DNA of 63,915 nucleotides, the filler included, from Aduncisulcus paluster (Eukaryota), in the NCBI GenBank assembly GCA_024181965.1. It is 10 parts of 10 records of this genome, joined end to end, with 100 filler letters (N's around TTAATTAATTAA, not from the genome) between each part and the next. Parts side by side here need not be neighbours in the genome. Positions count along the whole stretch, not along the records: positions 57,507 to 62,051 come from BQXS01010068.1; 9 more parts are not named here. The stretch is one strand, 5' to 3'. Below the pieces are notes generated by a model that saw nothing but the letters and a program-made list of their open reading frames with translations, was not told the origin of the DNA and did no database searches. Position 1 is the first letter of the stretch, and every line of letters begins with the position of its first letter. The position numbers and the translations under genes were made by a program. Shown here one piece after another: positions 4,383 through 63,299 of this stretch.

Positions 4383-4482
4383 NNNNNNNNNNNNNNNNNN
4401 NNNNNNNNNNNNNNNNNNNNNNNNNNTTAATTAATTAANNNNNNNNNNNNNNNNNNNNNNNNNNNNNNNNNNNNNNNNNNNN
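4383..4482. other. Artificial contig linker N44-TTAATTAATTAA-N44 (also 11526-11625, 17287-17386, 22074-22173, 29749-29848, 39030-39129, 45440-45539, 57407-57506, 62052-62151)
   Basis: Identical 100-bp construct occurs nine times. TTAATTAATTAA puts stop codons in all six frames. Confidence 0.98.
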
Positions 4483-20900: not shown

Positions 20901-21373
20901 CTTGTAAAGAGAGGATGAGCATATGGAGAACTCTCTCTGGATATGGAGAAACAAAGGAAAGTATTCTTAGAAATGCTTATAAAATTACAAGAGATAAACT
21001 CTCATTCGATATCAAAGACGCGTATAAAATCAAGAACTTTGAAGATATATATTTCAGATATGGACGAAAGGCAGCAATATCAGATCAAATTGGATTTGAT
21101 ACTAAATTATTTTCATCTTTTTCCAAACAGTTTCCCGATATTTCTTTTAATTCTGAGTTGAATTTGCCTATTGCTGCAGAGTCAGACCTTGTGGCTAATA
21201 TCTATGGGGTATCATCACCCAAGCAAAGCAATGGTTATGACTGTGGCGTGTTCACCTCACTTGCCCTTCGAGCCTTTGCATTTGACCATCCTTTTATTCA
21301 TTCACAAAGGGATATGGGCACATTCAGGCATATAATGTTGGTTGAAATGGCCCTAGGAAAGATTATCGAATAG
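17987..21373 (+). CDS. Ulp1/SENP-family (peptidase C48) SUMO protease with a very large insertion; true start uncertain
   Basis: WLNDECVNGY, FNSFFFTTL, IAIPINHHNTHWS, HIDSMG, and C-terminal PKQSNGYDCGVF...HSQRDMGTFR. Confidence 0.88.
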   Translation: MIQKTCIIPVGPSPILICGNQIRNALKSSLGLMDIHSFVKKDLHQEKKRREAISFFKFASDAFISALYKKSKLLQGLNFEREVRRLDYQFSHSDIIAEIPISSSSRTHKISKADLGPLFSRTSWLNDECVNGYIMLLMYHYGKLKNDSGRFKGSIHIFNSFFFTTLTNHATAETITMQYDDEGNIVIFPYRRSFGKQRRSIRPVVSHHPSTFYDHVFSFFNIKRWIVRAGYPCGLFLPFISSFQHQLSPDDSSPNSANFLCSFLPTTHSTPSSPQRIAIPINHHNTHWSCGCVDFHRRIVSHIDSMGYASVRDNIVCRVLMLWMVCEVLYAQYRWMEEEISKYPDSSLKYDSIFTQALPPPQYFHRSHVTALSIYQLAVWEWLKGWKCVCSTSDAVRVWKDEYDEDKEHVYGSSEAGSDSYSPLVADECFPQSFLISLFCAAMKHVDLCVEEEEKEKRERELRQQEWKRKEEMRKQMEAQKLKEPSGKMFQGSSSSTQAFDDEDEVFDISDSDDVPINSPSEKQPQSPPPVEESGSVNESESTEECSCGDSNYGSESVSSSVEAISTSVHSTDTSKHPESNPRRKVLGIGGKDEYIQMRILEEERKKEEEEQKQRMLERGQAMMCPMNAPPLTETEETSGEEHGDGGSYEYDDYSYSYSTNKQIGGGYVPDLTDSIFRKNTPRFSYQHDKEEEKSDPQLFEDDHEVQPSSGGKSDHDLVKTPLSTQHSSLTDGTLFYKRTPSFLPPSSVQMSSSSSQRLGQHQSTRISRDLSMSSRFSVIHSPHIGDHLSRSFSKNTPQSSEMNHTAFPEMMSSVQAASPTLLKSSTIDSESKTMEVFTSLFEKKQDFKTKGYAVWCQYLHSYCTSHGIQSQGQESSLRQEQEESGKETTKKGLLRKRRKFKSSFSSIKPNPRSIASSISSLTLSLSYPSQTGPSSPTISQSGPDQSQIFMPSCYSHEKSSFRMSSICATYACKERMSIWRTLSGYGETKESILRNAYKITRDKLSFDIKDAYKIKNFEDIYFRYGRKAAISDQIGFDTKLFSSFSKQFPDISFNSELNLPIAAESDLVANIYGVSSPKQSNGYDCGVFTSLALRAFAFDHPFIHSQRDMGTFRHIMLVEMALGKIIE

Positions 21374-24484: not shown

Positions 24485-27400
24485 ATGGGACTCTTGGATC
24501 ATTTAATACTTGATTCAAGAACTAGAATTGTTCAATTTGATGAAGCAAACCTCGATAATCGGAAATTCGAGCTAGTTATCTATGAATTGGCAGCAAAGTG
24601 TCCAAACATAACAGAAATGTATTTTAGAAAGAATATAATAACTATGATACCTAACTTTACGAGCTCAATGTTTCCTAAACTTGAGATCTTAGATATTTCG
24701 CAAAATCCAGTAATTTCATCACCTGAAATACTTCAAACGTTTATAAACAGGCTTAAAGACTTGCCTTTGTTACATTCTTTATTCATAAATATTGACCGTG
24801 AGGAAGATGAAGAAGCTATTTATTTGAATCTTGAGCGATTGTCTAGTTTGAATGGTCTTCCACTCGAGGAACATGTTGTGATTCCTCCATGTCCTCCTAT
24901 GGCTAATATGATCATTGGTGAAATTGTAGAATATGAATCGTACGAATCTGATGAATCATCTGGAAAAAAACACCATTATTCCGATTCCGAGGAAGGAAGT
25001 TGGCGAAGTCCAAAATCGATGAGTGAAGGGGCAAGTGGGTTTATTGATCATGATTCTAATCATTTTGAGCAGATATCTCGCTCCCAACAGGTTGTTCTGC
25101 TTGGGGTGGAACTCTGTGGACTCGCTGAGGATGAGAAACAGCGTTCTTTGGGGAGTTTATCTCATTTTGATCTTCATCATTCTGATTCGAATCCTCCTAA
25201 CAAACAACTATATAGTCGATACAATTCTGTAATCGATCGATCTCGCCGAGGATATACTCCCTTTATCTCTTCGTCGGTTGAAATTGAAGAATATGAATCG
25301 TACGAATCTGATGAATCATCTGGAAAAAAACACCATTATTCCGATTCCGAGGAAGGAAGTTGGCGAAGTCCAAAATCGATGAGTGAAGGGGCAAGTGGGT
25401 TTATTGATCATGATTCTAATCATTTTGAGCAGATATCTCGCTCCCAACAGGTTGTTCTGCTTGGGGTGGAACTCTGTGGACTCGCTGAGGATGAGAAACA
25501 GCGTTCTTTGGGGAGTTTATCTCATTTTGATCTTCATCATTCTGATTCGAATCCTCCTAACAAACAACTATATAGTCGATACAATTCTGTAATCGATCGA
25601 TCTCGCCGAGGATATACTCCCTTTATCTCTTCGTCGGTTGAAATTGAAGGTGATTCCTCCATGTCCTCCTATGGCTAATATGATCATTGGTGAAATTGTA
25701 GAATATGAATCGTACGAATCTGATGAATCATCTGGAAAAAAACACCATTATTCCGATTCCGAGGAAGGAAGTTGGCGAAGTCCAAAATCGATGAGTGAAG
25801 GGGCAAGTGGGTTTATTGATCATGATTCTAATCATTTTGAGCAGATATCTCGCTCCCAACAGGTTGTTCTGCTTGGGGTGGAACTCTGTGGACTCGCTGA
25901 GGATGAGAAACAGCGTTCTTTGGGGAGTTTATCTCATTTTGATCTTCATCATTCTGATTCGAATCCTCCTAACAAACAACTATATAGTCGATACAATTCT
26001 GTAATCGATCGATCTCGCCGAGGATATACTCCCTTTATCTCTTCGTCGGTTGAAATTGAAGAAGGTCTCCGAGATCTTGTCACATTTTCGTCTTCATTAA
26101 GAGATAATGTTCAAAAAATGGCTAAGTCTTCGACAACATCTCAAGTGACTCCAACCGGACTTGAGTCTCAACTTTCTACAAGTCACTCAACCCTTATCCA
26201 ATCATCTTTGATGTCTATTCAGAAAGATATTCAGGATATGCAGCATTTTGCAAGGGAACTAAGCGATCCTAGTGTCTCTGAACCTTTCGATCTTTCTTCC
26301 TCGACATTTGATATTTCTTCCCCATTCAGTTTTGGAGGTGAAGATGATCGTTCTTTTCATCTTCCATTGCCGTTTGATCTGTCAGTTTTGCTTTCAAAGC
26401 TCTGTCTCGTGGCCTGTTCCTTGTCTTCTCTCCTCCATTCTGTTCCATGGGATAAGACTGTCGATTCCAATGTTGATACCTTCATTGTAGCTTTTCAGCA
26501 TATATGCACATCCTTGAGTTCCTCCGTCAAGTCGCTTGGAGTCACTTGTGTAATGAATGGACGCTCAGAGATGGAGGAAGAAGAGATTGAGAAAAAAGAG
26601 TGTGAATCTCAAACATTTGCAGTCGCATCTTGTGAACAAGGAACTCAGATTGATATTTCTGGTTCTGATATACCCTCTTTGAAGCCAATGAGTGTGTCCA
26701 ATCGTATCAAGAAGGTGAAGAAAGCTAGAGCTAATGTGATTGAACTCAAACAACTTCGGGAAAAGGTCCAACAACTTAGCTCTGAAAATTCATTCTACAA
26801 AAGTCGTTTGAAACAGTTGGAACTCCGGGTTCAAGGAAACAATCGGGATAGAACTTTTGCTGAGTCTTCCATTTCCTCTCACGAAACTCAATCCTCGTCC
26901 GTTTATGACTCCCTTCATCGTGATGGACTTTGTCCAATTGGATCTCCTGAAGGTCAGGGATATGATCCTGGACCAATCAAACTCATCTCTGAATATGGGG
27001 CAGATGAAGAAGAAGAGGGGGATGAGAGTACGCCTATCGTTCTTTCTCTTGTACATTTGAAGACTATGATTCGTGAAATTCTTCGGAGGAGGAATGGCGT
27101 CCAAGAAAAGCGTGAGCATAGCGCAAAAAAGAGCAAAGAGAGTCCCAGGCCTTTGAGTTCGTCTCCGTTACAGGCTATTCCAAAATCCCCAACCAGAAGT
27201 GATTCATCTATCTTTTTACACCAAATTCCTCTGTCATCCTTCTTGATATCATGGTTTAATCGAAAGTATGGCGTTAGAAAGATTATTGTTCGCTGGATTC
27301 GAGCTTTTTATTCTGCCATTGAATCCTTTCAGCACACTGATCTCGATGTTAAAGTGTTTAAGATGGTATTAGATGGCCATTTGGATGAAGGTTTTATTCC

Positions 27401-28124
27401 AAAACGGGATAAATTAATCGAATTGGTGGGAATTCATATGGATAGAAATGTTAGAAACTCAAATCCTCTGATTCGAAAGAAGGATTTAGATGTTAAGATC
27501 CTTAAAATCTTTGAGGGAAAAGAAAAGATTTCAAAGAAGTTGTGTTTGGATATTATTAAAGCCGTTTTTAATAAGAGTGATCAAAAAGGAGTCATGGGTG
27601 AACTCAAGTCATATACTCAAACATTCTCTTCCAAAAACGTTGAGGATGGTGAACTCGAGCTTGAATCGTCGCCTATTCCTTCAAGGTTTTTATCACATGG
27701 ATATTCTCCATCGAAATATGGTCATTCTTTTTCATTATATTTTGAACAGTTTTGTCATGTTTTATCCCAATATTTCCTCTCTTCGCATCTTCGAACTTTG
27801 TCTTCTTTTTCAATGTTGTGGGACAAATGGATGAAATTGGAATACAAATCCACACACAGTTCAACGAGTCGGGCATCTTTACCAGAGATTGTTCCCTATG
27901 GACTGGATGAGGATAAGATGCGAATGTCATGGGCATCTTTTTCACAATGTTTGAAGGATGGGGGTATCTCGTTGAAAAACTGTCTTAAAGGTCAGCAATT
28001 ATGGAGTGGGGGACAAATTATCTCTTTGAATGGCGAAGTACCAGGAGAAATTGGTCATCTCTTGATTTCATTCAGTGATGCTGTGAAAATCATTGGAAAG
28101 GACATTTCTAAGATTCGACTATAA
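24485..28124 (+). CDS. LRR + coiled-coil protein with TSNAXIP1-like C-terminal region; contains a triplicated internal segment
   Basis: LRRs ITEMYFRKNII, LEILDISQNPV and LRR cap LERLSSLNG. Coiled coil LKQLREKVQQLSSENSFYKSRLKQLE. WFNRKYGVRKII...DLDVKVFKMVLDGHLDE resembles TSNAXIP1-type proteins (from memory). ORFs 24434 and 25638 are one gene. Confidence 0.65.
24878..26061 (+). repeat. Tandem triplication: 412 + 360 + 412 bp, apparently identical copies
   Basis: Copies start at 24878, about 25290 and 25650. The same 69-aa alternative-frame ORF appears three times in the track. Confidence 0.95.
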
Positions 28125-29748: not shown

Positions 29749-29848
29749 NNNNNNNNNNNNNNNNNNNNNNNNNNNNNNNNNNNNNNNNNNNNTTAATTAA
29801 TTAANNNNNNNNNNNNNNNNNNNNNNNNNNNNNNNNNNNNNNNNNNNN

Positions 29849-32800
29849 TGCTCCCAAACGAACTACTGCCTTCCTCGTCCTCTTGTTCTCCATGGGATTG
29901 AGAAACTTCCACTTGAACCTCGTCGCTTTTCTCCTGCTCTTCCAATTGCTGTGTCTTAGGACTCTCCATCTCTTCATGCATGGTTGAATCTCTTTCCCGA
30001 AGTTTCTCTAACCTTCTTTCTCTCTCCTCTTTCTCCTCATCTTCCCCAATCTCTTTATCTAATGCCATAATCTCTTTGAGATTCATCCCAGCAAAGCGTC
30101 CTGGAAGACACAGATATTCACATGATGAGAAATTGAATAGGGAATCAATTTCATCTGAAATACCGCCAAAGAGCATATAAATCAAAGACAGTGCTCCACT
30201 TTCAAGACGATCAATACGAGTGGAACCTTCAATATCGGATGCAGTGGAGTAGGATCTTCCTCTTGATCCATCGTCAGCTTGAGAGTGGCCAAGATCATCA
30301 GCAGATTCTCCAAGGGTCACACCAAGGCAGACAGAAGCACTCTCACGAAGGGATTCCTCGATTCCACCACGAGCGAGGAGGAAAAACGAAAAGGCTGAGG
30401 CAAATGCACGATGGGATAAGAAATGCAGCCCAAGCATGGAGCACAGAGAAGGTATTGAGTGAAATGAGAGCGCTGATAAAGCGGAGAGTGTAAGAGTTGA
30501 TGCAGAGGAGGGAATATTGGAAGAAGAAACGATATGTTGCATAAGAATATCACTCGCGGCATACAGTTTTGGAAGGGATGGAAGAGGAAGAGAAGATCCA
30601 TTAGAATGGGACGCACGCCGACCACTGACACTCAGAGTAGACACTGAGATTTGTGAGAGATCAGCTCCACTCCTTCTTGTTCCGCTCATCGCATGATGAT
30701 TCTGCTCTGTGCCTCCTTCAATATTGACTTTACGACCGATATTACCTCCAAATTTAGCCATCCAGCCTTCATTCCTGAGAGTTTCTTCGTCCACTTCCTG
30801 TCCAAGCCCGGTAGATATGATTGCCTTCTGTTCGAAACCTTCGAGTGATGTCTTCCACTTTCGACCTCCTCTTCTTACCTTCTTCTCTCCCTTCACCACA
30901 GCCATCTCTTGTTTAATGTGGGAGACAAGAGGCATCCTCTCAATGACGGTGACTGTGCTACCGTGGGAAACGGCAACAGATAAAGGGGCTGAGGGTGGAA
31001 GAGAGGATAAAAAGGAAAAGGGAGGAAGAGGAGGGAAAGCAGGAAGTTCAGGAAGCTCTTGGATGAAGGGAAGGAAACCTCCATCACTCGAAGGTGGAGC
31101 TTTCTTAAATTCAACTTGGCTTCTGTTCCATTGTTTCTCGAGAACTTGACCGAGAATTGTCTCTTGCTTGAGATCCTCATTGCAGGCTGTAATTTCACGT
31201 CCAAATGTTGAAGGCATATGAGTGAATCGAGAGATGAATACGTGATGGCGAGGAGATGTAATGGATGGAACACTGACTGAAGATTCTTTATCGGCACTCT
31301 TCGAGTCAGAACCACATTCTTCTACATCAAGCCATATGTCAGCAGTATCCATTTGGAAGGCAATGCTCTCACGGAGTTGTACCGCAGCACCAGAGGAACC
31401 TGGTGATTTTACAGCACCACGGTCCTGAAAGTCATTGTCATGGAGGAAATACTGAAGGCCAGGAGCTCGTCCATCACTGGCATCCCCACCGGATTCGAGT
31501 AGATCCAGTCCTTTAGTTGCAATATCTGAACCCCGAGATCTTGAAGTTTGACTAGGAGAGGATAAGGATGAGCCACCATCCCCTCCTTCAAGAAGAGGGA
31601 TAAGATGGACAACACTTTCTCCCATGGCAGTACCAGCATCATCACAGCTCACAGAATGGGCACCTACGGCAATGACACATCCTGTACACACAGATATATA
31701 TGACAGAAAGGGCGGAAGAAGGATTCCAGTGATGTGCTTGCTTAACGAGCCATTTGAAGACATGACCATGGCTATGGAGTGCTGAGGAGGAAGAGAAGCC
31801 TTGGAACCAAGGTCAGAACTACTTTTGATTACTGATCCATCCATTTTCTGGGCCGATGGCGTATTGTGTCCCACGAGAACAACATCACACTCCCCATCAA
31901 TATGAAGAACGGTGAACATGCGTGTAAGATACTGCAGAGGCCATGTTATCTGCTTTGTTGAACCATTTGATAATGAAACAATCTCAACAAATCGCTTCTT
32001 ATCACCAACCTCAGGAGTAGAATAATACCACAGATTCTTTCCTTTTACGACAACACAAACATCGGGAGAATCGGGAGGGCGGGAGAGAGAAAAGGAAGAT
32101 GTTTCAATATATTTTCCAATTTCAAGAATTCCTGGAGAAGATCCACTAGGAAGATACAAAAGATGTTGGCCAAGTGGAGGTTTCCCTTTGGGTGGAACAT
32201 GGAATATATATTCAAATTTATGAACCGTTTTACCATGAATAACTAGAAAAGAACACGGGTGGAGTGGTTTTGAGGGATCAGGTGGTAAGACTAAGACGAA
32301 ACAACCACCGTCTTTCCATCCAAGAAGTTCGGACGGAGCACATGCACAACCAGATTCATTTTTCATGGTAACTGCATTTGATATTGCAGATGTAATCTTT
32401 TTATCCAGTTTTAAATCAAGCAATTCATATGAAGGATGANNNNNNNNNNNNNNNNNNNNCACTAGGAAGATACAAAAGATGTTGGCCAAGTGGAGGTTTC
32501 CCTTTGGGTGGAACATGGAATATATATTCAAATTTATGAACCGTTTTACCATGAATAACTAGAAAAGAACACGGGTGGAGTGGTTTTGAGGGATCAGGTG
32601 GTAAGACTAAGACGAAACAACCACCGTCTTTCCATCCAAGAAGTTCGGACGGAGCACATGCACAACCAGATTCATTTTTCATGGTAACTGCATTTGATAT
32701 TGCAGATGTAATCTTTTTATCCAGTTTTAAATCAAGCAATTCATATGAAGGATGATGTCTTATAAATTTGTTTTTTCGATTTGGAGTACCATAAGTTATC

Positions 32801-45539: not shown

Positions 45540-48500
45540 ACAACACACACGATGCAAATAGTAGCAAACATAGGAATGGTGTGATGTCCGTGCACATGCG
45601 TGTGATGCCCAAGAACAGAGATGGCATTGGACACGTAACTGAGGAGAGAGGATGGCAGTGAGAGTGAGAAAGAACCAGATAATAGGAGAGATACAAGTGA
45701 TAGAGAAGACATCAGCAATGGAGAGGATAGAATGGACACGGAAGAGGAGAGGAGAGACTCAGTGGAAATAGAGGAAAGGCTGTTACTAGAGGTGGATGGT
45801 ACCGATCGTGTCTTAGAGGAGATTTGAGAGCCAAGCAACTCCCAAGCGGCAGAATCTGGAGGATTTGGTTGAGTGGATACTTTCCAGTCAGCTTCTTCAC
45901 CGTCCTTTTCCTTCTTTCGACGCCTCTCAATTCGTTTCCATGAGCTTCCAAGAGTGTCATCTTTGTCACTTCCTCGTCTCCATGCCTCAGCAATTCTCTC
46001 AGTGTTTGAGTGTGAAGAGAATGAAGTCTCCTCCCACTGTGTTAGTTCTTTGACCAGCAACAAGAAAGATTTGGAGAAGTATGGTGAAGGGAATGAAGGG
46101 GAAGAGATGGGAATTGACGGGAGAGCGAGTGTGCCATTCTGTGGTGACGCTGTCTGGCTGGAAGGTTTAGATGAGGAGGAAGAAGAGATGGATATTTGGG
46201 TTGGAGAATTTGGTCTTATTATGAAGGGAGACTCAGATTTAGCAGACGAGCAATCAGAAGGGATAGGGTTGAAGAAAGAGGAAGGACATGATTGAGGTAA
46301 AGGGAAGGAGGATACACTAAGAAGCCCCATTAAAGAGGATAGTTTAGAATTGATGATAGAGCTTCGTGCCGTTTGAGAAGAATCACTCCCGACTTTCCTC
46401 TTAATTCCTTCAGATGACATTCGAGTGGTTGACGTGGCCTTCTGATTCTTCCGTTGTTTGATGATTTGATCAGTCCTTGTGCGAAGGTATACTTGGGCAT
46501 AGTATAGAATGTTGCTAAGTGTCCGATTATTAGCTATACCGGCCACAACGCCACCGACACCACTTCCACAGAATGTAAGAGCAGTAAAAGCATGTGTAGG
46601 TATATTTGAGGGAGATACAAAGTTACCATATCCACTCCGGTGCCTTGAAGAATGAGTCATATTGGGAGGATAATGAGTGGTTGAAGCAGACACAAACCAT
46701 CTTGTCGTAGGAAGTGTTAGAGGGAGTGAATGGTAGGACTGAGAAGATCTATCGTGGGAAGTCACACTGCTATGTCTACTATCATTACGTTTACGTGACT
46801 TGTCTACACCATCACTCTCACTGGCACATGAAGACCTGCGAGAATCTGGCAAAGAACCACCTTGAATCCTCTCAGCCTCACGTTTTCTCATACATTCACA
46901 CACAGCACACGAAGCACGACTGAGTCGGAGTAACTCGGTCACTCCGTGTTCTGTGGAAGCAGTGAGGAAAGGAAGCCGTTTCAAAGCAGAAGAAAGGGAG
47001 GAAAGAGCAGTAATTGTCGATGGTGGACATGGTGATGGACACATACCAATCACTGTTGTCGTAAGGAAGAGAACAGAACTGAACAACGAAGGGAAAGCAG
47101 AGGCAAAAGTTGGTGTTGAATGAGTACAAATTAAAGCGAGACAGGTTTGGACTAATTCACACCATACGGATGATAAAGAGGAAGAGGAAGCAGGTTTGAT
47201 ACTCTCATCTTCAGCATCACTCTTTGAGTCTTGGGATGCCTTGACATAGTGCGTCTTTGTGTGCAACTCAGGTACACAACAGATAAGCAATGAGAGACAT
47301 CCACTCACAACATCCATAATATTTCTAGAGTTCTTGAGTCTCATTTTACCTTCTTCCGCTCCACCCTTTCGTTCAACAGTAGGACTATCTTTCTGACCAC
47401 TGATTCCAGCGAGAACATCAGTGAGACGATCGAACAACAGAACTACTCCACAGACACCAGTGCCACAGGAACAGAGGTGTTTCCCATCGGTTTGAACATC
47501 AACTCCAATCTCCACCAAATATTCCTCACCATCCAATGTATCAAAACCCTCTGAAGAATCCCCAACGAGTCCACACAACTCACCACAAGCACAGCAGACA
47601 CCGGCCACGGATTTGGTCCATTCACTGATACATATCCCACAAACACTTAGAGCAAGCAGAATACTCGAGTCGATAGATTGAGAAACGTTGGTGTCAACAG
47701 CTTCACGAATGATTTTGCCCATCAGAGAGCACACGGACAATACCAATGAATTCTGTAAAAGCTGAGTGTGGACATGAGGTTTGGAAGGAGGGAGAAGAAG
47801 CAACGAGAGAAGAGAAAAAGCTCTGGATAAAGAAGAAGAGAAGGAAGAGAGAAGGAGAGAAGAAGGAGGAAGAGCAATAAAGGGACTATATTCAACAATC
47901 TTTCCATATTCTGCTTCATATTTGTCCTCTTCAGTCATCGGTTCAGATGGAGAGAGGGAAGAAATAGTTTGACTTTCCTCAGGAATATCCCCAATACTCT
48001 CTCCAAGAAGGTCAAGAAGAGTGTTGAGAGCAGACGAGATTGATTGGGAGAACAATGAGGCTGGTTGATAGAAAGGAGAGGAGATAAGATGGGAACCATG
48101 AGCGTGTGAACATGGGCATCCATTCCCTTCCTTCACATGATGGCAGATGTTACACACAGCCGTGCTTCCTCCACCACGAATGGCAACACTCTCTCCAAGT
48201 GCTTTCCATCCACAGACCAGGATATCAACACAGACACTGAGAGACACAGAAGGGGAGAGAGCAGAGAGAGAGGGCATGTCGGACATCGATGGAGTGTATG
48301 GGGAAACATCTTTGAAGGGATCGGGTGAGTGTTCACTCACGTCAGTGGAAGCCTTAATGTCTAAGGTATCCACAGGGATAACATGAGAAAGAGAGGAAGG
48401 TTTGTGCACCATCAAGTGAGAAGATAACAAGTCAGAGGCTTCTTTACGGGCAGAGACACTCTTCCTTGTTTTCCACAAAGCAGAACAGACACTCTCACGT

Positions 48501-51500
48501 CGATCCTGACCTTTTCCCTGCCTTTCTTGATATCTCACATCCAAACACTCTGTGATACACTTTGGAATACAACGCAAAAGACCAACACAATACTCAGGAT
48601 CATTGACCATCATAGACACAACATGACGAGGGGCCAAATCAGGATCTTGAGGGAAATTCCTTAGAAGGGATACTTTCTCAACTGGAAGAAGAGAACTAAA
48701 TATAGCAACAGATTTTGGAATAGATTTCAATATCGGAGGCACTGCAGAGATTGGAATAGGAGAGAGAGTATTTGAAGTCGATAGAGATACGATATCACAA
48801 TAAGAAGCACCATCTTCTTCCTCCTCCTTGATGATCATTGAAGGAAGTAATGGTTCAGGGGTTGGAGTTTCTCGCTTCTCAGACTTCTTTCTACCCCACC
48901 AACCTTTCCTTGACGATTCCTTCTCCTTTGTTTTCTCCTTGTCTTTCTCATCTGGCAACAACGTTTGTTTAGAGTCTTGGGAACTTCCATAAACACTTCC
49001 ATAGCAGTAACATCCAACATTCCTCAGGGTATCATGGTATAGACGAGGAATAATCAGGGAGAAACACAAAAACTTATCATTCCACAAGTTTTGAATACTT
49101 TTAAACACGGGATAAACATCACATTCTGGCACCCCAGTCTTAGACATGACAGGATTTCCAGTACCAGATTCACAAGAAGTGTCCTGGGAGAGACCTGAGG
49201 AAAGAAGAGTGTCATGCATAGGGGTTGAACCTAAGACACATTGTTTTTCAAAGTCATACAAACTTGAACTCATCATGGATTTGCACTCATCACATAGCTT
49301 GGAAGACTGGGAATCGGATTCAATAGTATAGATGGCACATCCACATGAAGAACAGCGTTTTTTCTGTGGGGATCCATGTTCTCCACTTGTGTTCGACTGT
49401 GGGTTGTGCTGGAGTGAGCCAATAAGAATAGTATCGCTGTGGATAGTGTCAGGAGTGATAATTGGGGAAGAAGGATCGACGGTTGTTGTGAGTCTCCGTG
49501 AGGGAGCACGTGATCTCCTTTGAATGGACATTCTCCTTGATAGCATACCCATCTGATCTTGAATATCACATGATGTGAATCTCCTCCTTTCACCATTTTG
49601 AGTGGAATGTGTGAGATCCACAGATCCAATGCTTTTCTTAACAGAACTCTGAGAGTCATCAACACGACCAGGAATGGCTCCATCTCCACTTACAATAGTA
49701 CTACTGCGTCTCATTGAAGGGAGAGCATCGTGTTCCCACTCACCAGTGCCATCTATAAGGTTGGAAGGAGATATTGAGGATGGTTGAGATAGTAGACTGC
49801 TAGAAAACAATCGGTCACGACTGAAAGCTCTCTCAAACTCAAGTATCTTTGGATCCCTGTCACACGAAGAATCCACTGAAATGTTACTTGAACGATCCTC
49901 ATCTTCTCCTTTAGGTTGGGATGAAGTAGTCTTCAAGACCACAGATGTTGACTTGTTGTTGCTGACAAGATCTCCATTGAAGGTCANNNNNNNNNNNNNN
50001 NNNNNNAACACGACCAGGAATGGCTCCATCTCCACTTACAATAGTACTACTGCGTCTCATTGAAGGGAGAGCATCGTGTTCCCACTCACCAGTGCCATCT
50101 ATAAGGTTGGAAGGAGATATTGAGGATGGTTGAGATAGTAGACTGCTAGAAAACAATCGGTCACGACTGAAAGCTCTCTCAAACTCAAGTATCTTTGGAT
50201 CCCTGTCACACGAAGAATCCACTGAAATGTTACTTGAACGATCCTCATCTTCTCCTTTAGGTTGGGATGAAGTAGTCTTCAAGACCACAGATGTTGACTT
50301 GTTGTTGCTGACAAGATCTCCATTGAAGGTCACACAACGCCTGATATCTTCACGATTCACAGAGGACAACGAATGACGATAAGCAACACAATCCTGAGCA
50401 TCTCCACAAACACACACAAGCATGATCACAACATCATCAATGGAATAATCTGAGGTACAAAGAGATGGGGATTGCTGGGGACTCACAGGAGAAGAAGAGG
50501 AGGAGGTTATCGTATTGTTTGTATTGGTGGCATGGTCAGATTTGGTTGGAGGAAGAAGGGATAAAACAAGAGTACGTGTGCTCTGAACAAGGGCAGGATT
50601 GGATTGGATCCGAGAGATAGAATTCTCAATCTCTAAGTGTGGGTTAGCTGAGCCAAATTGGAGAGGCGCTTTGTCTGAATTGGTGGTTGTATTGGTTTTG
50701 CCTGTGGATACCGGATCATGAGATGTGGCTGAACCAGGCTTTGTATCATTGAATAACCAAACACACTCACATTCCATCCCTCCTGCATTCTTAACAGGAG
50801 TATGAAAGGAACATACAGAGGAGAATAGGGCGTATGGAGTGCAATCTTGGTCAACTTTAGCAGCAGAGGAATCAAACTGTTTGGAGATCGAAGCCTGATC
50901 ATTGGGAGCAATTAGCTTACATCTATTAACATGCGGAATGATTTTCCCACTCTTCCCGCACACAACACATGCTTGAACTGTTATGGGATCCCTCTTAACA
51001 CTTTCGAACATACGCGAATGAAGGTTAAAGAAGGCAGACAACCGTTTGGGTGAGAGAGAAAGAGAGAAAGAGAAAGGAGAGTCCACAAAGGCATCAGGAA
51101 CGATGCAGAGGGGACGTGGGATATTGGAACCAGACTCAGGGGAAGAATGTGAAGTTGCTGAGGATTTTTTCTGTTTGCCAAACTTCTTGTCCATCTCTTG
51201 CCAGAACTTTGACGTGGGATGTTTGCCCATCTTCATCCTTGCCAAGGGATTCATACTAAGCGAAGAGCTCCTTGTATTGGTGTTGCCCAGCGGCCGAAGA
51301 GATCCGTCACGTTTCAGTGTGGATGACATTGAAGATGATCTTGAAGAACTTGGTTGGGATACATCTTGAACACCGGTGCTAAGGTCAGCTGTGGAAGCTC
51401 TTGAAGATAGCATTTTGGGAGTATTCAATGTACGTCCTTCGACATGCACACGGAAGAGTGGAATGGAGGGTCTGAACATAACTGGGAGAAGGCTTGAGGC

Positions 51501-53558
51501 AAGGAGAGGATGGTAGTGCATTTTTGCGACAATACTCACACTTGGAAGAGTAATAACATATCGATGGATGATCATTTCGGCCAGACCATCCCAGAGACAT
51601 GTGGGAAGAAGAGGGAAGACAGTCGAACGGACACCATTTTCAAATGAAATAGATTTGTCATTCTTTTTGCCACACAATCTCCTTGCAGCAGCTTGTTGAG
51701 TTTCCTTGATAACATCCTCAGCATGACATCTTGGGGAATGTGATGATGTCACATGTACAGAAGATGAACCTCCATCGGTGACCTTTGTCTGAGAGTTTGA
51801 TGGCACGTCTGGACCAACATCCTCGATTGACACAAGATCCCCTTCCTCGATATCCTTAGGATCTAGAGGGAGAGCAAGGACATATGGGTTCGTATTTGAG
51901 AGTTCAAGGATGGAATGCTCTTTGCCAGAGGAGTAGAGAGAGGAGGTCGACCCAGCATAAGAGGGGGATTTCCTCATGCGTTTGGAAGAATCCATAAGAA
52001 CTCGAAGGGACTCGGATACAACACCCTTATCGCCATACTTCTTCTTACGATGCTGCTTGGCAAGTTGGACCTGATGTTGCAATAGTTCATGATTGAGTAA
52101 TGAGAACTCACTCAGTGCATCATCAGATGTATGAGTCCGGACCAAGGTCAAAGGAGCAAAGAATATAGGAGTGCTATGAATATTTAATGATACCAAAACG
52201 ACAAAACTGGAAGATTGTGGTGGGAGAGGAAGAGCAGAAAAGGAGAGATCAACAGATTTAAGCATGGAAAACTTTGGTGAAGCACATTCGCTGGCACGAA
52301 ATGAGCTTCGGCTTCGTGATTTTGACTTCCTATTCTTTTCATGAGCGAATTCCTTTCGAAGTTCGAACAAACGTCTCGGGAATCGTTCACCATCACTACC
52401 TACAGAACCCACATCCTCTTCCATCGTTTTGATGGCAGACATACATGCAGTTTCATCAACCAAGTGGACAAGGGGAATATGGGCAGGATATATAACCTGG
52501 GGGGCTGATAGGAGGGTATTGTGAAGCTGCTGAGTATAGAATGAAGTCGTTTGACCGCCAGAACCACCAGAACCGCCCGCTATCTCCGAATATCCCGATG
52601 ATGGAGCAGTCATACCGGTTGTGCTCTCTTTGTCACTGCCAATCGAGGACGAAGATGAAAAGGTACGGCTTCCAGATGATTTGCGCCGGTTTCGTTTATC
52701 CTCTCTCCGTTTACGAATCATTGATCGCCGAACTTCTTTTCTCACTCCTTCAAATGTATTTTGGTGGAAAATACGAAGTTCAATAGACAAATCATCGATG
52801 GGAATGCCCATGTGTTGAGTTAAGAGCATAATTAAGGGAGATATTGGTAAAGATATTGATAAAGAGAGGTCAACTCTCCGAATAGAATGCCTATGAAGGT
52901 GAAATTCCATTGTATGAACACCTGGACAAATACGGGTTTCAGTGTTCCTGGAAAATGAAAAGGACATTGGGACCTTATTGGACGGTAACGAAGGAACAGG
53001 TCGAATTGGGCTTGAGAGCATAAATTCAGTGGGTTTCATACTTCTCTTTATCCTCCCAGGTCTCAATTCTGGTGTAATGGATGGAACTCCTTTTGATAAT
53101 ATTCCATATGGATCTATCTGAACTGAATCCTGGAAATGCCCAACAATATCATCAGAGGCGGCCATATATGTTCTAAAAATGGAAGAATCTTCAATATCTG
53201 TTTCACAGAGCAATTGAGAAGTATTTCTGTGTGTAGAAGCAGAAATAACTTCAAGGACTTGACTATGGGCCTCTTCTTTTATCTTTTCATGTGGAATATG
53301 AATGCTTTCAAGAGTCTTATCGATAACATCTAACATTTTAGGAGTAAGAAGTCTATTGAGGTACTTTCCAAATTTAAAATTAGTTAATAAACAGTTTTTA
53401 TAAACTTCTCCTCCTATTATGGGTGTAGAAGAAGAAGAAAAACTCCTACATGAACTTGACTCAGAAGGAACACGTTTTCTAGCAAATTCATCGCCTTTAA
53501 CTTGCCCTTCAGAAGTACTTATTAAAGAAATATGATTGATTAAATCATCAATCCTCAT
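45540..53558 (-). CDS. Very large Ser-rich hypothetical protein (at least 2550 aa), 3'-partial; 49661-49986 duplicates 50007-50332 across a gap
   Basis: Track ORFs 49911..53558 and 45488..50035 share the duplicated segment TFNGDLVSNN...GAIPGRV and join in frame. Confidence 0.8.
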
Positions 53559-57406: not shown

Positions 57407-57529
57407 NNNNNNNNNNNNNNNNNNNNNNNNNNNNNNNNNNNNNNNNNNNNTTAATTAATTAANNNNNNNNNNNNNNNNNNNNNNNNNNNNNNNNNNNNNN
57501 NNNNNNTGGATTTGACTGCGGGGAAATGT

Positions 57530-58060
57530 CATATTCCATGAAGCATCAGGGGATTAGATTCGTAGCAGTATACAGACATATGTATACCATCATATTCCGA
57601 GTTCTTGATATTTTTGATTGTAAGCAAAAGCAAGTGAAAATGAAACAGAAAGGCAAGGATAAGGATAGAAATGAAATGGAAATATATCCATGTTATTGAA
57701 TAGCATTGAAATCGTTCATAAATGTTCTTAACACGTGAAATGGAACTATATCCAGTCCTGAGGGTTCTCCAAAAGCCTGAGATATCGAGAATAAACACCA
57801 TGGCATGGAAATGAAAATAAAACATGTTTTTATCATTTACCAGCATTTAACTCGTTTATATGTGTTTTTTTAAATTTCCAATCTTATCTATTGAAGGGTT
57901 GCTTGTTCAGTCCTCGGTTTTTTCTCGTCGTACAAGCAAATTGTATGTTTACTATATGTCACATCTTTTATTAAATGTATATTAAGAAATATTTTAACCG
58001 GATTCATTCATTATTCTGCTTGTTTTTATTTTTTAGATAAGAAATTCTATCTCTATTCAA
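57530..58060 (+). repeat. Conserved upstream region of the repeat-kinase gene family (inverted copy at about 62259-62790)
   Basis: About 530 bp upstream of ATG 58061 is nearly identical to the reverse complement of the region upstream of ATG 62258. Confidence 0.9.
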
Positions 58061-61000
58061 ATGAGTTCATCCACAGATGCTATTATTCAAACTGTGAAAC
58101 CTGAGTTTGTTCACAAAGGGAATTACTTTTGTTGTCCAATTCCTGGAGATGCCCCCAATATTAAGAGTGCAGCAGTTCCAACTATCGAAGCAATTAATGG
58201 AACTGAGGAAGAAGGAGATCAAGACTACGATCAGAGTTCTTATGCACAAAGGATGATGAAAGGAGAGGGTCATTATGGACTCTTTACTCATATCTCCATT
58301 CCTTTCTCATCATCTTCCCCAATGAAAGGTGCTTATATCTGTCTATATAGCTATTCTGCACCTCCATCACACCTTATCTTCACTCTCACATCTTCAAAGG
58401 GTGAGAAAACATCCAAGAAATACGAGTTTCCTGGATTTAGAGGTCATCGTTGGTATTTCCTTCCTGTTGATCTCCCTGATGTTGTTCTGTGTGAGATTAC
58501 AGGGAAAATCGGAGAAAAAGAATATTTTAGAAGCCATTCTCTCGTTTTCATTTGTAGAGAAGAAACTCCTGAAGAAATCACATCTCGTGAAGCCAGAGAG
58601 AAACTATGGTCTGAAACTCCAGTTGTGAAACCAGAGTTTGTTAAGGAAGGAGGTAGAAAATCTATTCCCATTCCACGTGATGATACAAAGCTTGTAGATC
58701 CTTCGTTCTCAATGGTTAAGTGCAAGAATGACAGGTATAGTAAGGAATCTAAGGAGTATGATCAGAGTTCAAATGCACAAGAAATGTTAAAAGGGGAAGA
58801 TTATGCTCGTTTATCCCATCTTTCCATCCCTTTGCCATCACCTAGTCCTATGAAAGGTGCTTATATCTGCGTGGGTAATCGTTGGAGTTCTCCCTCTCTT
58901 CTCTTCACTTTCACTGATTGTGATGGTAAGAAGATAAACAAAAAGTATGAATTCACAAAACCTAAAGATGATTATGAATGGCACTTCCTTCCTATTGATT
59001 TGTATAATGTTGTATTGTGTGAGATTGAAGGGAAAGGAACGTGGGATGAGACGAATAGTCGATGTTTCCAGATTCCTTCCCTTGTTTTCATTAGTAGAGA
59101 AGAAACTTCTGAGGAAACCCAAGTCCGTGAAGCCAGAGAGAAACTATGGTCTGAAACTACAGTTGCAAAGGCAAACTTCCTTTGGGAAGAGAAAGTAGCT
59201 ATTATATCTGATCGTAGAGGAGATAGAAAATCTAAAGATAGAGATTCTATTCCCATTCCACGAGATGATCCAAAGCTTGTTAATCCTTCATTCTCAATGG
59301 TTAAGTGCAAGAATGATTCGTATTGTAAGGAATCTGAGAAGTATGATCAGAGTTCAGAAGCACAAGAAATGTTAAAAGGGGAAGGTGAAGAGGATTGTGT
59401 TGAATTATCCCATCTTTCCATTCCTTTCCCATCACCTAGTCCAATGAAAGGAGCTTATATCTGTGTTCGATGTTCTCACTTTCTTCTCTTCACTTTCACT
59501 GATTCTGTTGGCAAGAAAACATCCAAGAAGTATGAATTCACACAACCTAAGCATTGGTATGAATGGCACTTCCTTCCTATTGATTTGGATAATGTTGTAT
59601 TGTGTGAGATTGAAGGGAAAGGAGAGTGGAGGATGAACGGGGAAAGTTATAGTTTCTCGATTCTCTCTCTTAATAATCGATGCTTTTGTATTTCCGCCCT
59701 TGTTTTCTTCCGAAATTATTATATTGCCACCTCTCTGATTTCTCACCTTCCTTCCAGTTCCTACAAAACCCTTCCTCACATGTTATTCTCATGTGTCAAG
59801 CCAGAGTTTGTTCATAAAGGAAATTACTCTTGCTGTCCAATTCCTAGAGATGCCCCTAATATTAAGAGTGCAACATTTCCAACTATCAAAGCAATAGATG
59901 GAACCAAGGAAGAAGGTGATAAAAAGTACGATCAGAGTTCTTATGCACAAAAGATGATGAAAGGAGAGTATCATGAAGGAAACTTTACTCATATCTCCAT
60001 TCCTTTCTCTTCATATTCCCCAATGAAAGGGGCTTATTTCTGTCTAAGCAATTATCTTTCTATTGATTCACCTCCATCACACCTTATCTTCACTCTCACA
60101 TCTTCGAAGGGTGAGAAAACATCCAAGAAATACGAATTTCCTGAATTTAGAGGTTGGCATTGGTATTTCCTTCCTGTTGATCTCCCTGATGTTGTTCTGT
60201 GTGATATTACAGGGAAAGGAAGAAGGAAAGAGTATTTTGAAATCTTCTCCCTTGTTTTCACTAGAAAAGAAACACCTGAAGAAATCAAATCTCGTGAAGC
60301 CAGAGAGAAACTATGGTCTGAAGCTCCAGTTGTGAAACCAGAGTTTGTTAAGGAAGGAGATGAAGATTCTATTCCCATTCCACGTGATGATCCAAAGCTT
60401 GTAGATCCTTCGTTCTCAATGGTTAAGTGCAAGAATGACAGGTATAGTAAGGAATCTTGGAATTATGATCAGAGTTCAAATGCACAAAAAATGTTAAACG
60501 GGGAAGATTCTGTCCAATTATCCCATCTTTCTATCCCTTTCCCATCATCTAGTCCAATGAAAGGTGCTTATATCTGTGTGAATTATATGTATAGTTCTCC
60601 CTCTCTTCTCTTCACTTTCACTGATTGTGATGGTAAGAAGACATCCAAGAAGTATGAATTCACAAGACCTAAACATGATTGTGAATGGCACTTCCTTCCT
60701 ATTGATTTGCGTAATGTTGTATTGTGTGAGATTGAAGGGAAAGGAAAGTGGTTATGTGGAAAGAATGATAGAAGTTTCTCAATCTACTCCCTTGTTTTCC
60801 TTCGAGGTGATGATATTCCCACCTCTTCTCCTTCTCTTCCTTTTCCTCTTCCTCTTCCTTGCCGTGCCATTTCTCCATACACTGTTCCACTCGACTCTGT
60901 TACTCTCACTCCAACATCTCCTTCAACCATCACTCCTCAGTGCATCATTGGCAGTGGTGGGTTCGGAGATGTGATCTTGGCTCTTCTTGTGTCTCCGTCC

Positions 61001-62051
61001 TTCCCCACTCCTGCTGTGTTATGTGCTGTGAAATGCATGAAGAACGCGTGCACGCATGAAGAGAATGTGCGTTGTGTGGAGCGAATGAAGAAAGAATTCT
61101 CTCGTCAATGTAAGTTGTATTCCAAGGCGTCGTTACAAAGCTGTATCCCTCGTCCTCTGCATATCCTTGATCTTCTCGATGGTGATCTGAAGGGAACGTT
61201 CGGGATGGCGATGGAGTTCTGTCAAGGTGGGAATGTGATTGAGTTTGCCAAGAGCTGGGCTGTTGATCTCGACGAATGTGATCCTTGTGAAGATGATGAA
61301 GATGACCTTGTGTATGATCCTGTGAAGATCGCTGCTCTGTGTGTGGCTATCATCGAGTGTGTTGCTACCTTGTGTGTTGCGAAGAAGAAGCTTGTTCATC
61401 GCGACATTAAACCCGATAACTTCCTTGTTCGGTATGATGCTTTGAAGAAACAGTGTCATGTTCTTCTTGGAGACTTGGGCTTTGTTGAGATCCGTGACTC
61501 TATGTCTCGCAGTTCTTTCATTACCACAGATTCCTCTTCTTCTTCAACTTCTTCAACTTCTTCAAGTTCTTCAAGATCTTCTTCATCCTCCTCCGAAGAT
61601 CGTCCGTTTGTATTCAAGACATCGATCGTGGGCACTCTGTGTTACAATGCACCCGAGAGTCTTGCCAGTGGGTTTTACTGCCAACGCAGTGATGCATGGG
61701 GAGTTGTGCTGACAATATGGTCTCTCTTCAATGATATGAAGCAGCCTTTCATGACTCATCCCAAGGTGACAACAATTCCATATTCTGAGGATTATGACAA
61801 GAATCTTATTGATGTTTTAGGAGAGCTCACAAAGAACAAGAGTTGCCACCCACAGCTGACAGACAGTGAGATCTTCTGTTCCCTTGAGACGATTGAAGGT
61901 GGGAAATACAATGCCGTGTATCAAGTGTTTCTTGCCGTGTTCGATGGTCTGTTGAACCCTGACCGTCTGAAACGAATGACGATCCACCAAGCCCGCTCTC
62001 TGACGAATGATATCAAATATTTACTGCCGCGTCTTGGAGAAGGGTGGGAAT
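58061..62051 (+). CDS. Ser/Thr protein kinase preceded by five tandem ~170-190 aa repeats (A-B-B-A-B), 3'-partial
   Basis: Repeats start at about 58094, 58622, 59162, 59795 and 60329. Kinase from about 60944: IGSGGFG, AVK, HRDIKPDN, DLG, GTLCYNAPE, SDAWG. No signal peptide or TM segment seen. Confidence 0.93.
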
Positions 62052-62151: not shown

Positions 62152-62258
62152 CTCTTAATATTGGGGGCATCTCTAGGAATTGGACAACAAGAGTATTCTC
62201 CTTCATGAACAAACTCAGGTTCTACAGTTTGAATAACAGCATCTGTGGATGAACTCAT
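62152..62258 (-). CDS. 5' end of a paralog of the 58061 repeat-domain gene (not in ORF track), truncated by contig edge
   Basis: Reverse strand reads MSSSTDAVIQTVEPEFVHEGEYSCCPIPRDAPNIK versus MSSSTDAIIQTVKPEFVHKGNYFCCPIPGDAPNIK. Confidence 0.9.
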
Positions 62259-63299
62259 TTGAATAGAGATAGAATTTCTTATCTAAAAAATAATAAAAAC
62301 AAGCAGAATAATGAATGAATCCGGTTAAAATATTTCTTAATATACATTTAATAAAAGATATGACATATAGTAAACATACAATTTGCTTGTACGACGAGAA
62401 AAAATGGAGGACTGAACAAGCAACCCTTCAATAGATAAGATTGGAAAATTTATAAAACACATATAAACGAGTTAAATGCTGGTAAATGATAAAAACATGT
62501 TTTATTTTCATTTCCATGCCATGGTGTTTATTCTCGATATCTCAGGCTTTTGGAGAACCCTCAGGACTGGATATAGTTCCATTTCACGTGTTAAGAACAT
62601 TTATGAACGATTTCAATGCTATTCAATAACATGGATATATTTCCATTTCATTTCTATCCTTATCCTTGCCTTTCTGTTCATTTTCACTTGCTTTTGCTTA
62701 CAATCAAAAATATCAAGAACTCGAAATATGATGGTATACATGTGTCTGTATACTGCTACGAATCTAATCCCCTGATGCTTCATGGAAGAGTGACATTTCA
62801 TTCCACCCAACTCCAACTCCAACTCCAATGCCAGATCCTGATCATCTGATACATCCGAGACTGTGATTTGTGATCTGTGTTCCTATTCTTTGGAATGGGG
62901 TGCCATCTATCATATGCCATTTTTTCAAAGCTCTACCATAAAATCCATGCCTGGAAGCCCGAGTGGAAATATCTTGACCGTCCCCCTGGTTGATAAACTC
63001 CTTGAGGGTTCCGATACATTTAATACTGAGCTTTGGATTAGTTCACTGCTCTGTGCTCCTTGTTTTTGGAATGTGGGACATCTATCCTATGTCAAAGCTC
63101 TACTATAAAGAAATAGTAACTCATACCCCAAAGATGAACTATCAGTACATCCTTGAACCACAACCAACCTACAACCAACACCAACCAACCTACAACCAAC
63201 CCCTCAGCGTGTCATATTGATTGAATCACGTGTGACTGGAATGAATGTTGCTGAGGGTCAGCGTTCCCCTGGTTGATAAACTGATTGAGGGTCAGCGTT

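Follow-up and report, generated by a model that had tools for sequence, protein, structure and literature searches.

Aduncisulcus paluster carries a large lineage-specific family of putatively cytosolic kinases with arrays of a hypervariable domain of predicted galactose-binding-like fold

Aduncisulcus paluster, a free-living, deep-branching metamonad, is a flagellate related to Giardia. In a stretch of 63,915 nucleotides joined from contigs of its genome (the window), we studied a gene of contig BQXS01010068.1 (4,545 bases, window positions 57507-62051) whose product joins five tandem copies of a domain of about 175 residues to a protein kinase domain. In each copy about 20 fixed positions are close to random between copies, with length varying too. 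The data are best read as showing one member of a very large family, known from A. paluster only, of soluble Ser/Thr-type kinases with N-terminal arrays of a new domain family, and we lean towards regarding this family as a germline-encoded, diversified binding repertoire wired to kinases.

The open reading frame (ORF) occupies 58061-62051 on the + strand: it begins with an ATG at 58061 and remains open throughout 1330 codons, at about 40% G+C, up to the contig end. The point at which it is cut lies some 20 to 60 codons ahead of the expected stop, and the C-termini of two gene models of the family, P0016 and P0027, extend past it. The initial annotation had ended the gene at 60810, which is too early: the gene extends past this position and is truncated at 62051. 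All 25 peptide strings quoted there were found at the expected places in the translation of 58061-62050.

The N-terminal 925 residues consist of five units in the order A-B-B-A-B, as seen in the translation and in a MAFFT alignment which, with motif anchors, served to delimit them: A1 (58088-58618, amino acids 10-186), B1 (58619-59158, amino acids 187-366), B2 (59159-59785, amino acids 367-575), A2 (59786-60325, amino acids 576-755) and B3 (60326-60835, amino acids 756-925), all on the + strand. Unit B2 is lengthened by insertions of 15 residues close to its start and of 11 residues in its last variable loop (59624-59665); this length variation is part of the diversity. The alignment has 57 invariant columns common to the five units, with the differences bunched at the sites named earlier, so that the description of five repeats with a near-constant framework in one frame holds. 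A tblastn search of one unit against the window gave E values of 1e-31 to 1e-122 for the other units; the repeat is therefore far beyond chance. Same-type units within the gene are 68-79% identical, and each unit possesses its own N-terminal extension, C-terminal linker helix and motifs (IPIPRDDP, SPMKGAYICV, LLFTFT, EWHFLPIDL).

The join between B2 and A2 (59708-59794, + strand, amino acids 550-578) is non-canonical in the alignments. No other join between units of the family is like it: the helix that commonly links units (REETPEE...REAREKLWSE) and the common start of the genes (MSSSTDAVIQT) are both unlike it. In appearance, an A-B-B piece has been fused onto a complete A-B-kinase gene of the P0220 type, and a small intron could be hidden in the join. 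One 254-base contig from an independent read assembly of sequencing run X1 spans 59603-59856, covering the join, with zero differences.

To describe variation across the family, 404 distinct near-complete units were aligned to a profile (217 of type B, 92 of type A and 95 of other subtypes). The four patches that the initial annotation had recognized within the five units are the main variable sites family-wide. In type B, 19 core columns show an entropy of at least 2.6 bits and up to 4.0 bits, for a maximum possible of 4.32 (columns 52, 61-65, 67, 89-92, 121, 132, 144, 146, 147, 152, 154 and 156), and the same sites vary in type A. Gaps and insertions are located in the same patches as the high-entropy columns, in line with the indels reported at first. 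The patches had also been called loops, a description which fits most of the variable residues and has to be widened to alternate positions of the last strand, where columns 152, 154 and 156 reach 3.6-4.0 bits against 0.6-0.8 bits for columns 153, 155 and 157. Further variable positions occur in the N-terminal extension (columns 12-14, 24, 27, 40 and 45-46). D, E, K, Y, S, N and R abound among the hypervariable residues, with D+E+K+R accounting for 42% and Y+W+F+H for 16%.

In unit B1, all four patches read on the + strand. Patch 1 (58796-58810, residues 60-64, columns 61-67, 2.7-3.8 bits) lies immediately before the first core strand, runs into it and varies in length, columns 60-62 being gapped in 71-79% of type-B units. 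Patch 2 (58874-58885, residues 86-89, columns 89-92, 2.7-3.4 bits) belongs to the loop after the strand ending in AYICV and patch 3 (58958-58975, residues 114-119, columns 117-122, 1.6-3.7 bits) to the loop before the EWHFLPIDL strand, while patch 4 (59039-59077, residues 141-153, columns 144-156) comprises the last loop and the alternate residues of the last strand. Among the 217 type-B units, patch 2 takes 174 distinct four-residue strings, patch 3 177 distinct strings and patch 4 209. The strings are mostly singletons (146-201 of 217), and the shuffling of loop cassettes from a limited pool was therefore rejected.

Patches and framework are only weakly coupled. For 217 unit pairs identical at all 66 low-entropy framework columns, identity at the hypervariable columns is 23.5%, versus 15.7% expected from column frequencies, and while framework identity doubles from 0.5 to 1.0, hypervariable identity increases just from 0.09 to 0.235; since the columns were chosen by entropy, the two levels of identity are circular, and the information lies in how weakly they are coupled. 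The same is seen between closely related genes: this gene and the gene models P0220, P0221 and P0237 are 97-99% identical in linker and kinase (88-216 of 90-218 residues), but their A and B units have only 3-12 of 23-24 hypervariable residues in common, against 107-126 of 130-134 other residues.

The fold of the unit was predicted with AlphaFold2 on B1, using a 46-sequence unit alignment, with a mean predicted local distance difference test score (pLDDT) of 96.4 and a predicted template modelling score (pTM) of 0.87. Foldseek searches against the PDB returned 18 matches at E <= 0.001, including APC10/DOC1, the muskelin discoidin domain, CBM32, an F5/8C domain and the lectin domain of lectinolysin, followed by weaker matches (E 0.002-0.003) to IFT25, neuropilin b1 and DDR1 (rank 49). 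These matches span E 6e-5 to 3e-3 with a probability of 1.00, and those to CBM32, F5/8C, muskelin discoidin, neuropilin b1 and DDR1 E 2e-4 to 3e-3; the likeness to APC10/DOC is structural only (1jhj, E 1.4e-4, template modelling score, or TM-score, of 0.47-0.52). A viral structure library returned F5/8C and discoidin proteins, and language-model features gave weak leads to CBM32 and F5_F8_type_C. The core of the unit is thus modelled as a jelly-roll beta-sandwich of about 110 residues, of the galactose-binding-domain-like class.

Domains of the discoidin, CBM32 and DOC families have their ligand site in the loops at one end of the sandwich, and members of this fold class bind glycans, lipids or peptides there. 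The secondary-structure string and the column map of B1 place patch 1 (residues 60-64) immediately before the first core strand and at its start, patch 2 in loop 86-92, patch 3 in loop 112-118, and patch 4 in loop 139-149 together with residues 149, 151 and 153 of the last strand, and the conserved PSPSPMKG and DCDG turns occupy the intervening connections. Because successive connections alternate between the two ends in an up-and-down sandwich, the four patches, along with their outward-facing neighbours in the first and last strands, would be expected at one end, the canonical ligand-binding end, provided that the two 'strands' of 20 residues in the string represent hairpins or arches.

A search with B1 matched 77 proteins of 731-2328 residues and 30 of 99-315 residues, and all of them (77 of 77 and 30 of 30) were named Aduncisulcus paluster or came from the transcriptome of strain NY0171, which is an A. 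paluster strain (PMC9933649). Two matches come from that transcriptome set, so the family is transcribed. The five-unit profile, run against 1.84 billion representatives, gave 167 matches at E <= 0.001. Among 20 of the weakest listed matches that were looked up, 17 were from A. paluster, and the remaining three, from a nematode, a planthopper and an unnamed record, align as 6-31 short stretches only and look spurious; within this search no convincing unit match in another organism was found. With 107 of 107 named matches and 17 of 20 weak ones belonging to A. paluster, the lineage specificity proposed at the outset stands. A full-text search within one library of papers found no published account of this family, nor of hypervariable discoidin-type families.

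Altogether, 614 unit matches were located in 211 of 214 fetched proteins. This gene's kinase domain is matched by 80 of the 214, and a precomputed kinase Pfam domain is present on 42 of the 77 long matches. The arrays span two to fifteen units (fifteen in P0109) and follow a grammar in which a type-A unit usually comes first and type B next, A being followed by B 88 times versus 7 times by A; where all units could be typed, the commonest array is 'AB'. There are more than two subtypes of unit, and some long proteins place distinct ones (KCAYICL, SIKGAYISV) beside the kinase. Six gene models (P0050, P0062, P0064, P0066, P0071 and P0013) join units to other domains: leucine-rich repeats (LRRs), MSP, chromo and integrase fragments, a nitroreductase fragment, an ABC transporter and an AAA ATPase. 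Such joins may be real domain shuffling or merged neighbouring genes and were not used as evidence; the chromo/integrase model hints at retroelements adjoining family members. An HSP20/CS-type fold, suggested by the protein names 'NudC domain' and 'small heat shock protein RTM2-like', was rejected: both proteins lack a Pfam family and the fold search points elsewhere.

After the last unit comes a Pro/Ser/Thr-rich linker devoid of any hydrophobic segment (60836-60943, + strand) and then the protein kinase domain (60944-61993, + strand, amino acids 962-1311), which matches Pfam PF00069 with E 6e-13 and 49.2 bits, for a curated cut-off of 31.7. The catalytic motifs are all present (GSGGFG at 964, the lysine of CAVKC at 988, HRDIKPDN at 1113, DLG at 1138 and APE at 1197), and the kinase on the chain of the repeats is apparently competent, as predicted from its intact motifs. 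Between DLG and APE it contains a serine-rich insert (61532-61594, + strand) of 21 Ser/Thr/Arg residues; a tandem repeat of 9 or 18 bases codes for this insert, which may serve phosphorylation or regulation. No solved structure is closely related to the domain, the best matches (E 1e-6) being receptor tyrosine kinases over short stretches only, and a word-index search with the kinase domain found relatives in A. paluster only. Neither a signal peptide nor a membrane segment is apparent: the five 19-residue windows of highest hydrophobicity are all within the kinase core and the N-terminus is polar (MSSSTDAIIQ), which is why the protein is most likely soluble and cytosolic, as the initial annotation had claimed.

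At the DNA level, same-type units of this gene show identical runs of up to 65 bases, interrupted by short patches with several differing bases per codon. Differences per nucleotide amount to 0.36-0.51 in hypervariable codons versus 0.06-0.13 elsewhere (3-8 times more); between B1 and B3 they affect 33 of 72 hypervariable positions versus 24 of 402 others (Fisher p 4e-16), and the other three same-type pairs give Fisher p values of 5e-7 to 2e-10. Two or more bases differ in 10-13 of 21-24 hypervariable codons versus 3-8 of 130-134 other codons. The framework is near-constant even at many synonymous sites, and its ratio of nonsynonymous to synonymous rates (dN/dS) is 0.11-0.18, as expected of codons under purifying selection. 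Divided by dS of the other codons, dN of the hypervariable codons gives 2.05 for A1-A2 (bootstrap 0.94-4.46), 8.44 for B1-B3 (3.7-25.6), 2.64 for B1-B2 (1.27-6.33) and 2.38 for B2-B3 (1.12-4.95).

If the family is a binding repertoire, each unit would provide a distinct germline-encoded binding site, and an array of two to fifteen units might bind a ligand that is multivalent or composite, be it a glycan, a peptide or a protein. This would cluster the kinase domains or release them, and the kinases would then phosphorylate downstream targets. Duplication and exchange among paralogues would generate the diversity, which selection would keep at the binding positions.

Several known systems resemble the family in part. 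The discoidin/F5-8C, CBM32 and APC10/DOC domains are of the same fold class, and by strand order the patches of our units fall at their ligand end; unlike them, the A. paluster units have no sequence-level relation to these families and carry their own extension, helix and motifs in tandem arrays of up to 15. A literature search found no report, for those fold families, of near-random residues at fixed positions across hundreds of paralogues. Closest in domain content are DDR1 and DDR2, which likewise have a discoidin-type binding domain and a protein kinase on one polypeptide. The DDRs, which are collagen receptors, are tyrosine kinases that cross the membrane once and have a single discoidin domain outside the cell. 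The A. paluster proteins, in contrast, have no apparent signal peptide or membrane segment, a kinase motif of Ser/Thr type (HRDIKPDN), 2-15 units, and form a huge hypervariable family.

In behaviour, the closest match is with the highly conserved repeats of fungal NOD-like receptors (NLRs). The WD, ANK and TPR repeats of these cytosolic proteins (HET-E/D, NWD family) are described as near-identical, subject to concerted evolution and repeat exchange, with few hypervariable positions which are under positive selection and map to the binding surface (PMC4986451). The defining identity of those repeats is given as 85% (PMC4986451), whereas same-type units here are less alike (the 68-79% given above) and the surface placement of their variable positions comes from strand order. 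Other differences concern the repeat, a solenoid unit of 30-40 residues in fungi and an autonomous domain of 175 residues here; the signalling part, a NOD NTPase with a death or effector domain in fungi and a kinase here; and the variation, largely allelic in fungi and between paralogues here. Pfam searches found no NACHT or NB-ARC NTPase in this protein, and an NLR-like fusion was discarded as well: the precomputed NACHT hit (and STAND) in P0071 is P-loop noise inside the ABC transporter.

Plant LRR receptor kinases, NLRs and lamprey variable lymphocyte receptors (VLRs) combine a conserved scaffold, exposed hypervariable residues and a large lineage-specific repertoire, and the plant receptor kinases share with the A. 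paluster family a kinase output. These LRR systems differ in that their fold is a solenoid, the receptor kinases are membrane-bound and VLRs arise by somatic assembly; no such feature was seen in the A. paluster family.

Several results weigh against reading the family as a binding repertoire. Concerning the fold, no Pfam family (PF00754 and PF03256 included) matched the units at E <= 0.1 except HYR_4C at 0.053, far under its cut-off, no PDB sequence was matched by the 46-sequence profile at E <= 10, and TM-scores to known domains are modest (0.4-0.54). Because structural matches exist and sequence matches in Pfam and the PDB do not, the unit makes a new sequence family of a known fold class. 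The one-end placement of the variable sites is deduced from strand order, and residue 129 of B1, also hypervariable, would fall at the opposite end. The assembly is a further concern: it was built from short reads and comprises 25,863 contigs totalling 29.4 Mb, with an N50 of 4.6 kb (PMC9933649), and no read-derived contig of run X1 spans more than about 250 bases of this gene, for which reasons the combination of patches and units described here may be partly chimeric.

As to selection, the DNA comparisons cover the five units of this gene and 107 bases (35 codons) of one paralogue. The dN/dS comparison proposed in the initial annotation had a divided outcome. Patch dN is indeed 2-8 fold above the surrounding dS; inside the hypervariable codons alone, the ratio is 0.5-1.6 over about 10 synonymous sites per pair, a figure in which multi-hit codons make the synonymous count unreliable and the apparent dS is also inflated. 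Positive selection is for these reasons not cleanly shown. The idea of a diversifying ligand-binding surface retains a ligand-binding fold class and variation at fixed sites of its binding end, as placed by strand order, and is weakened in its claim of diversification by selection. Recombination also complicates the picture. The paralogue, whose coding start lies on the next contig (first 107 bases at 62152-62258, - strand), is 98.5% identical to this gene over 523 upstream bases (515 aligned bases identical) versus 90.7% over its first 107 coding bases (97 identical), where the residue is changed in 6 of 35 codons and three differing codons are synonymous. P0220 is the same as this gene from the last loop of B3 onward and different upstream. 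The mismatch between upstream and coding identity, and the 3' block common with P0220, point to a mosaic history of which recombination or gene conversion among paralogues is part, and gene conversion of the framework could yield the same pattern as selection.

The most serious rival, which we think unlikely, is built on conversion. Concerted evolution would homogenise the framework without adaptive diversification, unconstrained surface positions would drift to saturation, and the divergence of the patches would block or bound the conversion tracts; the units would then have an ordinary scaffold or kinase-adaptor function, without specificity. Such a process fits the ratio within the patches, which is compatible with neutrality, and their raised apparent dS, the mosaic histories seen upstream and in the 3' block of P0220, and the slow rise of hypervariable identity, as if framework similarity did not reflect age. 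It fits less well with patches of 4-13 codons flanked by 30-65 identical bases, which conversion should homogenise as well unless selection removes the events, and with hypervariable codons differing more at positions 1 and 2 than at position 3 in three of four pairs. Moreover, the variable positions coincide, by strand order, with the canonical binding end of the fold, and entropies of 3.6-4.0 bits beside near-invariant strand residues exceed ordinary surface drift at 70-80% overall identity.

A repertoire directed at the cell's own proteins, in which each paralogue docks the kinase on a different endogenous substrate or structure and no foreign sensing occurs, appears improbable. The best structural matches do include intracellular binders (APC10/DOC1, muskelin, HECTD3, BIRC6 and IFT25), the proteins appear cytosolic, and units occur with LRR, MSP, ABC-transporter and other domains in gene models, although these models may be merged; but hundreds of almost unique binding sites are not expected for endogenous partners, nor are unrelated binding residues on near-identical kinases, and the family is absent from the other organisms searched.

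That the pattern is an artefact or debris, whether chimeric short-read assembly of collapsed repeats, pseudogenes or mobile-element sequence, is very improbable. The low N50 and the large number of contigs leave room for it, and 18,269 read-derived contig pieces fall on the 4.5-kb stretch at at least 90% identity, none of them spanning it. Summed contig depth in run X1 is 250,000-1,600,000 over the repeats versus 1,405 over the unique join, but this depth is not a copy number, and both it and the count of pieces serve as a qualitative sign of high repetition only. The irregular B2-A2 join, the highly repeated upstream region and the one gene model that links units to chromo and integrase fragments (maybe a merged model) point the same way. 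Debris would, however, hardly keep 1330 codons open at this G+C content with a framework under purifying selection, intact catalytic motifs, a unit that folds very confidently and members derived from a transcriptome. Patches of 4-13 codons fit inside a single 150-base read, so chimeras can reshuffle them and cannot create them, and the irregular join itself was reproduced without difference in the independent read assembly. In run X2, which was only guessed to be RNA, cover is zero over 59635-59786 and little over 57811-57962; no conclusion on expression or splicing of the gene was drawn from this. Finally, programmed site-directed mutagenesis, somatic or germline, of the kind known from diversity-generating retroelements or antibody hypermutation, would suit differences sharply limited to short patches, multi-base codon changes beside long identical runs and raised apparent synonymous change, but is the least credible of all, since retroelement targets show adenine-only changes whereas transitions and transversions are mixed here (13-18 of each per pair, no single-base bias), no reverse transcriptase or template repeat was seen on the 4.5-kb contig, to which the search was limited, and one variable patch linked to the unique B2-A2 join is identical in the read-derived contig (a weak point, as contigs drop rare variants).

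A binding repertoire wired to kinases, the reading that we favour, invites a more specific proposal, namely that hundreds of cytosolic kinases with individually randomised discoidin-like binding ends serve intracellular sensing of non-self (prey, symbionts, viruses or conspecifics). We put this forward as speculative and rather doubtful: of the sensing or immune receptor family suggested initially, the lineage-specific family is supported and the sensing or immune role is conjectural. Such a system would be built on neither LRR, immunoglobulin nor NOD modules, and its randomised ends might be likened to the complementarity-determining regions of antibodies on a constant scaffold.

A constant scaffold with hypervariable binding residues is the hallmark of antibodies, VLRs, plant and fungal NLRs and receptor kinases, and outside animals, plants and fungi such recognition families are, to our knowledge, hardly known. 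The A. paluster proteins would add both a new domain family and a new architecture, in which arrays of discoidin-like sandwiches are joined directly to a soluble kinase, and the family may make up a sizeable part of the 29-Mb genome. Should diversifying selection act on the sites, the question of how bacterivorous protists discriminate food, symbionts, viruses and kin becomes directly testable; if the reading is true, the family would also be a natural library of small, confidently folding binding domains. It serves in addition as a warning that short-read assemblies represent such families badly.

The non-coding region upstream of the gene (57507-58060, strand not given) is itself a repeated element common to paralogues, and its summed contig depth in run X1 matches that over the coding repeats. 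Several gene models of the family begin within it, for example P0023 and P0027. This region of about 550 bases, which the paralogue has at 62259-62850, may be a shared promoter or part of the duplicating unit; spurious ORFs of about 100 codons lie on its opposite strand.

As for the rest of the window, nine N-run linkers (TTAATTAATTAA) are found at 4427, 11570, 17331, 22118, 29793, 39074, 45484, 57451 and 62096, with several 20-base N gaps besides, so that at least 10 contigs are joined and 15 blocks can be counted altogether; since the window is made of joined contigs, genes across a linker are not genomic neighbours. A 921-codon ORF on another contig (54510-57275, - strand) is acidic and lysine-rich, with no Pfam family above threshold, and five long ORFs of 828-1927 codons on other contigs (33294-39077, 45488-50035, 49911-53558, 29793-32552 and 25638-28124) have no Pfam family at E <= 1e-5; much of the large coding content of A. 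paluster is unannotatable. An ORF of 1128 codons at 17987-21373 encodes a C-terminal Ulp1/C48 protease catalytic domain (E 1e-9).

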